64,000 bases of DNA from a virus (IMGVR_UViG_2519899835_000003); one strand, 5' to 3'. Counted from the first letter of the stretch, positions 20,038 through 20,862 are shown. Program-made: numbers and translations. Notes: generated by a model from the letters alone, not told the origin.

Positions 20038-20772
20038 TCAGAATTTCAGGCCAATGCCAGCAGTAACGCCACTCGTGCGCCAGTCGCCAGAGCCGGAACC
20101 TTCGTAAGCCACATCCAGTGTAACACTCTCATTCAGGTTAAACTGTGCACCTGCAGCCCACGCAAGGGAGGTTTTTTTCGTGCTGTTGCTTTCAGAAAAT
20201 CCGCCACTACTGTTAATATTGTCCTTAATTTTCAGGTCAGCGCTAACTTTAGCAACGCCCATCCCTGCCATCGCATATAAACTCATGTACTGATTAACCC
20301 GCCATGAAGGCCCCGCTAACAGACTCCAGTAATTCGCCCTGATATCCGTTCTGGCAGAAGCTGCCGGATTCTTAATCTTCCTGGTATGATCGGCTGACTG
20401 CACATCAATAAATGTCTGTGAGTTAGTGAGAGAACGCGTCCATGTAAAAGAGGTGATAACGCCAAAATCATCCGTTATCTCGTAGCGATACCTGATATTA
20501 ATGCCCTGTGGATTTTTATCCTTGCCTTCATATCCACTGACCCGACCATCTGTATATTCGCCCAATGAAGAAAAGTAGTTTCTGTTGACGAAATGACTGA
20601 AAGTCTCCCTGTTATGAGCAGTCGCATCCTTTACAAAATCCTTCAGTCCCGGAAACTGAAAGTGCGCATACCCCAGAGAAATTGTATGCTCTCCTTCTGC
20701 TGCATGTGCAGATAAATTTACACAGGCAATCCCGGAGATTGCACACACAACCAGTGTTGCTATACTCTTCAT
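20038..20772 (-). CDS. lom: Lom/Ail/PagC-family outer membrane beta-barrel protein
   Basis: Signal peptide; C-terminus AYEGSGSGDWRTSGVTAGIGLKF matches lambda Lom AYEGSGSGDWRTDG...YKF; AT-rich upstream region. Confidence 0.9.
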   Translation of the reverse strand: MKSIATLVVCAISGIACVNLSAHAAEGEHTISLGYAHFQFPGLKDFVKDATAHNRETFSHFVNRNYFSSLGEYTDGRVSGYEGKDKNPQGINIRYRYEITDDFGVITSFTWTRSLTNSQTFIDVQSADHTRKIKNPAASARTDIRANYWSLLAGPSWRVNQYMSLYAMAGMGVAKVSADLKIKDNINSSGGFSESNSTKKTSLAWAAGAQFNLNESVTLDVAYEGSGSGDWRTSGVTAGIGLKF

Positions 20773-20862
20773 TTAAGATATCCTGTATTCAGATAACACG
20801 CTAAACTTTTTAATAATACATCTTTTTAGACATTTTAAATGAATATTAAAGACTCGCTTCAA

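Follow-up and report, generated by a model that had tools for sequence, protein, structure and literature searches.

The outer-membrane protein Lom of phage lambda (206 aa) is encoded just after the receptor-binding tail-tip gene (lambda lom, L002:3966-4586) and is expressed in lysogens. Yersinia Ail (3qra), Salmonella Rck and PagC and E. coli OmpX are eight-stranded barrels with long external hairpins, encoded on chromosomes or plasmids, with mature chains of about 150 residues and no helix in the first extracellular loop (L1). Serum resistance is documented, to our knowledge, for Ail, for Rck and for Bor of phage lambda, not for Lom. A functional analogy to Lom is offered by Cor of phi80, N15 and HK022 and by Llp of T5, small receptor-blocking envelope proteins encoded beside tail or receptor-binding genes; they are lipoproteins, not barrels, and bear no sequence relation to Lom. 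We know of no exclusion phenotype for the Lom of an Stx phage. The record of the Stx2 phage 933W (1999) already carries the gene with the annotation 'lom: outer membrane protein Lom precursor; expressed in lysogenic state', and RefSeq names the product 'Ail/Lom family outer membrane beta-barrel protein'.

The locus analysed here contains this same gene. Interval 20038-20862 of the window, by which we mean the whole 64,000-nucleotide stretch of viral DNA analysed, is composed of one open reading frame on the minus strand (20772..20038, ATG to TGA, 244 aa), which is lom, together with a 90-bp intergenic spacer (20773-20862) that fills exactly the gap up to the stop codon of the 205-aa gene upstream. 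The coding sequence (20038..20772, stop codon included) is assigned as an Ail/Lom-family outer-membrane beta-barrel precursor from the reading frame itself, the PF06316 and PHROG_108 profiles, an AF2 model and Foldseek. It is the already annotated lom of a short-tailed Stx2 phage of the 933W/phi24B type, a real and ordinary feature. The encoded protein equals that of 933W and that of phi24B over all 244 residues (GenBank AAD25471.1, ADN68466.1), and the 90-bp spacer upstream of phi24B lom is likewise identical. At the DNA level, a 1.1-kb region around lom matches P13374, the Stx2a phage of the O104:H4 outbreak strain, at 100% identity; with 933W, VT2-Sakai and the Stx2 phages I and II the identity is 99.9%. 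For 933W, phi24B, VT2-Sakai and P13374, no difference of Lom from the window is seen, with the same gene in the company of the same neighbours. Among 5426 complete E. coli genomes, 419 (about 8%) contain lom.

The preliminary description had placed the protein in the Lom/Ail family, leaving the strand (minus) unstated, and profile searches bear out the assignment far beyond chance. The Pfam model Ail_Lom (PF06316) scores 113.4 bits (cut-off 23; E 1.5e-32), the match covering residues 88-244 against profile positions 48-199 only, and PHROG_108, 'Lom outer membrane protein', is matched over the full length (E 2e-79). Among PDB sequences the nearest is lambda Lom (9wso chain C, E 3e-24), followed by Y. 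pestis Ail (E 6e-20) and then OmpX (E 8e-11). The NCBIfam equivalog models of Rck (NF011777; 99.3 bits against a cut-off of 258) and OmpX (NF006917; 68.3 bits against 176) are matched far below their cut-offs, and the protein is therefore considered a family member that is no equivalog of any characterised chromosomal one. With lambda Lom it shares the Pfam and PHROG family, an identical AYEGSGSGDWRT motif and the terminal F; BLASTP aligns only residues 89-244 of the window protein, that is, about 160 C-terminal residues at 36% identity. The two proteins differ in the N-terminal third, which remains unaligned, in a helical L1 insertion of about 40 aa and in a longer L2. The phages differ as well, in that the window phage is a podovirus whose tail and receptor are not those of lambda.

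Both ends of the protein carry the features that the preliminary description had read from them, here again judged by eye from the sequence. Residues 1-24 (20701..20772, minus strand) form a predicted Sec signal peptide with basic n-region, hydrophobic core and the A-H-A cleavage motif, in the context of MKSIATLVVCAISGIACVNLSAHA followed by AEGEH; cleavage is predicted between AHA and AEG, from sequence reading and from alignment with the signal region of lambda Lom, in which ARA precedes EGG. The AF2 model renders the signal peptide as a low-confidence helix outside the barrel. Interpretation as a lipoprotein was discarded, since a lipobox is absent and the signal-region cysteines lack conservation. 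At the other end, residues 222-233 (20074..20109, minus strand) constitute the family hallmark AYEGSGSGDWRT, which runs from the last part of strand 7 through the short loop L4 into strand 8; the terminus reads ...GIGLKF in the window and, after the same AYEGSGSGDWRT, ...GYKF in lambda Lom. In the alignment of 32 homologues, A24 and F244 are invariant, as are Y223, E224, S226, G227, G229 and W231 of the hallmark, and loop L4 (GSGSGDW) is almost invariant, showing the lowest entropy among all segments. The last beta-strand (...VTAGIGLKF; 20041..20070, minus strand; AF2 strand 233-243) ends in Phe, which we take to be the BAM insertion signal typical of outer-membrane barrels.

The AF2 model, built with the 32 homologues, shows an eight-stranded barrel (mean pLDDT 86.4, pTM 0.76) with strands at residues 29-39, 73-98 (with a break), 103-126, 138-158, 163-184, 191-212, 217-226 and 233-243, strands 3-6 making long hairpins. 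Foldseek returns Y. pestis Ail (3qra; E 8e-19, 30% identity) as best match and also OmpX (E 6.6e-14, 22% identity), with a probability of 1.00. An antiparallel Ail/OmpX-type barrel of eight strands is thus predicted with high confidence. Its distinguishing element is the enlarged extracellular loop L1 (residues 40-88; 20509..20655, minus strand), as delimited from the alignment, the start of the Pfam match and the model, within which AF2 places a helix of 27 residues (41-67; block pLDDT about 80-96). Lom proteins of the lambda type, 199-206 aa long, are gapped by about 40 aa at this place; proteins that have the L1 stretch form a 'long Lom' group of 230-250 aa, found in E. coli, Shigella and Salmonella. 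Neither alignability with lambda Lom over the full length nor conservation of the surface loops was found, L1-L3 being the most variable parts: among 16 long Lom proteins, the mean entropy is 1.4-1.8 in L1, L2 and L3 compared to 0.55-1.0 in the strands. Variation concentrated in loops is the pattern to be expected, from sequence comparison, for a surface-exposed protein under diversifying pressure, and it gives no indication of where the pressure comes from.

Comparison with sister phages reveals the interval as a sharply bounded, independently exchanged unit, and hence the classic 'moron' picture. Nucleotide identity with sister phage contig L006, at 90-100% as far as 20864, drops to 40-80% between 20863 and about 20030 and then recovers to 83-100%. 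The flanking proteins of L006 are highly similar to those of the window (nozzle 94%, needle 91%, gp55 93%, gp54 96%, Hok-like peptide 100%, next gene 95%), as against 65% for Lom. A third allele, 43% identical, occupies the same slot in another sister phage, so that one slot holds three alleles (100, 65 and 43% identity) in phages otherwise 82-100% identical. Among sequenced phages, the 933W-type allele (at least 95% identity) accounts for 111 records and the 60-80% type for 73. The most divergent allele (43%) is that of a sister podophage (L015:2521-5002 and L016), where the backbone is 83-100% identical, the needle is longer (82% identical) and gp54 and gp55 are missing. Besides its independent replacement, the unit has its own terminator directly downstream and a composition unlike that of its neighbours. 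The intrinsic terminator, identified from a terminator scan and RNA folding, follows the lom stop codon at a distance of 24 nt (19988..20014, minus strand) and reads ACCCGCTGTGATGGCGGGT then TTTTTTATT; it folds into a GC-rich stem of 7 bp with a U-run behind it, the folding energy of the 66-nt stretch being -24.5 kcal/mol (z-score -2.55). The region upstream of the gene, described from the outset as AT-rich, is indeed so: the spacer has 24.4% GC, compared to 46% in the reading frame and 50% in the window. Stretches of 90 nt that are as AT-rich make up 0.15% of all in the window and occur in six places in 64 kb. The others (24931-25020, 25201-25291, 38316-38408, 43661-43754 and 56579-56709, each at or below 24.4% GC) may be further accessory-gene junctions or promoters.

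Expression in lysogens, the next element of the preliminary description, is on record for phi24B, whose Lom protein and spacer are identical to those of the window. The phi24B lom was detected by a lysogen-specific antiserum, with similar qPCR levels in the presence or absence of induction (PMC3342100), and RNA-seq 'fully supports' its constitutive, uncoupled expression (PMC4651098). Taking family, structural model and this published expression together, we consider it probable, at roughly 0.85, that Lom is a Sec-exported, BAM-inserted barrel, produced constitutively in lysogens, that alters the cell surface. The gene would be a self-contained accessory cassette consisting of AT-rich leader, reading frame and terminator. 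Its 244-aa precursor would be exported by the Sec route and cleaved after Ala24, and the BAM machinery would insert the protein in the outer membrane via the C-terminal Phe strand. The barrel would expose three long variable loops on the cell surface, among them the helix-bearing L1 peculiar to 'long Lom', and would in this way change the surface of the lysogen. Transcription in lysogens is, on the published phi24B results, independent of prophage induction and may be supplemented by late read-through.

The position of the gene requires some precision. In minus-strand order, the genes for the lateral tail fibre (25878-28523), the nozzle (23044-24747) and the central needle (21779-23047) are followed by gp55 (92 aa), gp54 (205 aa) and lom; after lom there come a 428-bp region, five small genes and then the gene of a 2783-aa candidate ejection protein (8049-16400). 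Location 'inside the tail gene block', as originally described, holds true insofar as lom is part of the late structural operon and comes after the needle and candidate needle-tip genes; it needs amending insofar as the candidate internal or ejection genes follow, so that lom sits at a junction. The lateral tail-fibre gene (minus strand, 881 aa) has very long collagen-like Gly-X-Y repeats, a local GC content of 0.66-0.72 and strong AT skew; its counterpart in 933W is annotated with 645 aa, and the repeat array thus appears expanded in the window. For gp54 and gp55, a role as needle-tip receptor-binding proteins has been proposed in the literature. A trio of gp55-like, gp54-like and lom genes travels together in the window (20038-21764), in L008 (1276-3007) and in L010 (6102-8744). 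The L008 trio is situated within a lambda-like tail cluster, with side tail fibre and assembly genes following. The L010 trio has two lom genes in tandem (68% and 46% identical to the window's) and lies in a contig region that lacks tail genes and is bordered by RNase H, ORF6N and Fic/Phd genes. Long Lom is not always linked to gp54/gp55, a generalization that was considered and dropped: the Salmonella homologue (37% identical; L013:6001-7331) occupies the interval between M and L, tail genes of the lambda type, where it is arranged back to back with a gene (Sod_Cu, sodC-type) for a Cu/Zn superoxide dismutase. The Salmonella locus provides a further accessory island within a tail cluster.

What the cell gains from Lom is a question on which we hold graded views. 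Interaction with the host, in the form of adhesion as for lambda Lom and possibly complement evasion as for Ail and Rck, is suggested by analogy, and we adopt it tentatively, at somewhat less than even odds. The Salmonella long Lom next to a Sod_Cu gene among tail genes fits this reading; sodC genes carried by Salmonella prophages have a known role in virulence. Of the two roles linked to Lom-type proteins in the preliminary description, adhesion has its precedent in what is cited for lambda Lom, and serum resistance is documented, as stated above, for Ail, Rck and Bor and not for Lom; the Rck equivalog cut-off is missed. With an alignment to lambda Lom that is confined to the C-terminal two thirds (36% identity), function is not simply transferable. 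Later papers repeat the roles in adhesion and serum resistance for the lom of Stx phages by analogy with lambda, and our literature search for adhesion, serum or deletion phenotypes of the Stx-phage allele returned only such statements. That Lom confers some other benefit, or has no strong effect, appears to us possible, though less likely than interaction with the host.

A benefit directed at phages rather than at the host is possible yet rather doubtful. Lom could bind the outer-membrane receptor of its own phage type and so stop the unproductive adsorption of progeny or superinfecting phages; we propose that such masking would act at high Lom abundance, as in late infection or at the surface of lysing cells, and that the variable loops and the L1 helix would set the receptor. 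Over-expressed lambda Lom gave strong defence against lambda-vir, not T7, and exclusion or prevention of readsorption was proposed as its role (bioRxiv 10.1101/2025.02.28.640651). PDB entry 9wso holds two lambda Lom chains together with maltoporin (LamB, the lambda receptor) and no gpJ, a composition which hints at binding of Lom to that receptor and whose biological meaning is read here from chain names alone. A pairing of Lom with the lambda tail-tip protein J in this entry was considered and rejected, there being no J chain and maltoporin being the partner; the maltoporin chain sequence is common to 9wso and 8xcj, with six chains across both entries. Gene order is consistent with masking in that lom directly follows the candidate needle-tip receptor binders gp55 and gp54, and in that the trio recurs once among lambda-like tail genes and once away from tail genes. 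In one sister phage, moreover, a changed needle and the loss of gp54 and gp55 accompany the most divergent lom allele. The other sister phage speaks against consistent co-variation with the candidate receptor binders, with gp54 and gp55 at 93-96% identity but Lom at 65%. Co-variation of lom alleles with gp54/gp55 was accordingly abandoned as inconsistent, the 65% allele occurring with 93-96% gp54/gp55 and the 43% allele with both absent. The Salmonella homologue, furthermore, is not adjacent to receptor-binding genes. According to PMC3430580, phi24B multiply infects the same host at high frequency, from which it would follow that Lom at the level present in lysogens does not exclude phi24B. 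For the allele in the window, masking is a reading by analogy. The PADLOC defence models gave no match for Lom, gp54, gp55 or the Hok-like peptide encoded nearby.

The expression of lom invites a further alternative, in which the gene is a passenger of the late operon: it would have no promoter of its own, would be transcribed only after induction and in dependence on Q, and would owe its signal in lysogen cultures to a spontaneously induced minority of cells. The orientation of lom is that of all flanking late genes, and promoter searches lend the idea some substance. The spacer (20773..20862, minus strand), characterised by its GC content, its identity to phi24B and a matrix scan, has a ribosome-binding site AGGA (20784..20781) 8 nt 5' of the lom ATG, and a scan of 19000-22000 for consensus sigma-70 promoters found none on the coding strand within it. 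With a relaxed matrix the sole candidate in the spacer is TTGAAG (20862..20857)-N19-TAAAAT (20837..20832), which belongs to the window's top 23 sites by a crude matrix and has a poor 19-nt spacing. Alignment of the upstream regions of five lom alleles disclosed no conserved promoter elements, the spacers being unrelated in sequence. The earlier suggestion that the AT-rich upstream region could hold a promoter is therefore plausible, but the sequence offers no consensus site. Lytic production of Lom is indicated by its peptides in phi24B virion preparations, and lambda lom, as cited in a preprint (bioRxiv 10.1101/2025.02.28.640651), increases strongly in late infection, in contrast to the flat level reported for phi24B lom (PMC3342100). 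Against the passenger reading, the phi24B transcript is similar with and without induction, unlike those of late genes, and RNA-seq agrees; the cassette, moreover, has its own terminator and an extremely AT-rich leader. We therefore regard late transcription alone as improbable. Given the uncoupled expression published for phi24B, a lom promoter can be argued to exist, on the strength of expression data and not of the sequence.

That Lom is a structural or tail-associated component of the virion is very improbable. In its favour stand the place of lom in the structural operon and a low-level detection of the protein in phi24B virions after purification. The authors of that work, however, regard the protein as contamination, and the cryo-EM model does not contain it; membrane vesicles that co-purify account for the Lom peptides, and the cleaved signal peptide, barrel fold and BAM-type C-terminus place Lom in the cell envelope.

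Beside lom, the 428-bp region on its 3' side (19609-20037) holds a small reading frame (19805..19665, minus strand, 46 aa) of the Hok/Gef family (Pfam E 4e-8 and 33 bits, the cut-off being 22; 'Hok/Gef family protein' according to PGAP), the peptide being 100% conserved in the sister phages. Over its leader there is a sub-threshold Rfam match to sok (28 bits, E 9e-4), placed relative to the reading frame just as the strong match is at the canonical hokW/sokW locus. The latter type I toxin-antitoxin locus (50180-50504, minus strand) has a 70-aa mok-like reading frame that contains the 51-aa HokW (coding part 50180-50392), with an Rfam sok match of 110 bits at 50330-50504. Identity of the lom-adjacent reading frame with the published hokW was thus rejected; at 46 aa it is a second copy, and the window phage, as judged from sequence, carries two loci of the hok family. 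The published 24B_1, a 20-nt 'microRNA-size' RNA described as regulator of lysogeny (PMC4426718), maps to the plus strand at 19879-19898, with a predicted promoter TTGACT...CGCTAACCT at about 19811-19840. RNA and promoter are antisense to the hok-like leader, which is the arrangement of a Sok antitoxin, and 24B_1 accordingly resembles a fragment derived from an antitoxin RNA of the Sok type. A link of 24B_1 to hok is absent from the 24B_1 papers of 2015 and 2017, and the hokW paper concerns the other locus. Type I toxin-antitoxin action is suggested as a simpler explanation for the published phenotypes of 24B_1 deletion. Elsewhere on the minus strand (43335-43540, 46682-46880 and 48267-48465), Rfam matches above gathering score comprise STnc100 and two copies each of C4 antisense RNA, isrK and the c4 a1/b1 targets; the C4, isrK and c4-target matches correspond to antirepressor control modules of the P1/P7 type.

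In regard to Stx phages as such, the analysis has re-identified a gene annotated since 1999 whose lysogenic expression was already published, and it adds nothing new beyond minor details, namely the barrel model with the L1 helix of 'long Lom' and the swappable cassette with its three alleles. Only the Hok-like/24B_1 neighbour and the function of this lom allele merit follow-up. The lambda data, with an anti-lambda phenotype and the presence of Lom and LamB in one PDB entry, make it worth asking whether prophage Lom is directed at phages rather than at the host. In the specific form that analogy suggests, the long Lom of the 933W type would be a receptor-masking barrel docking on the outer-membrane receptor of its own phage, much as lambda Lom appears to dock on LamB in 9wso, and not primarily a virulence adhesin, with the L1 helix and the L2/L3 hairpins setting the specificity. 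We consider this unlikely; if true, the slot after the tail-tip genes would be a general home of 'receptor binder plus receptor blocker' pairs, in lambda-like and in short-tailed lambdoid phages.
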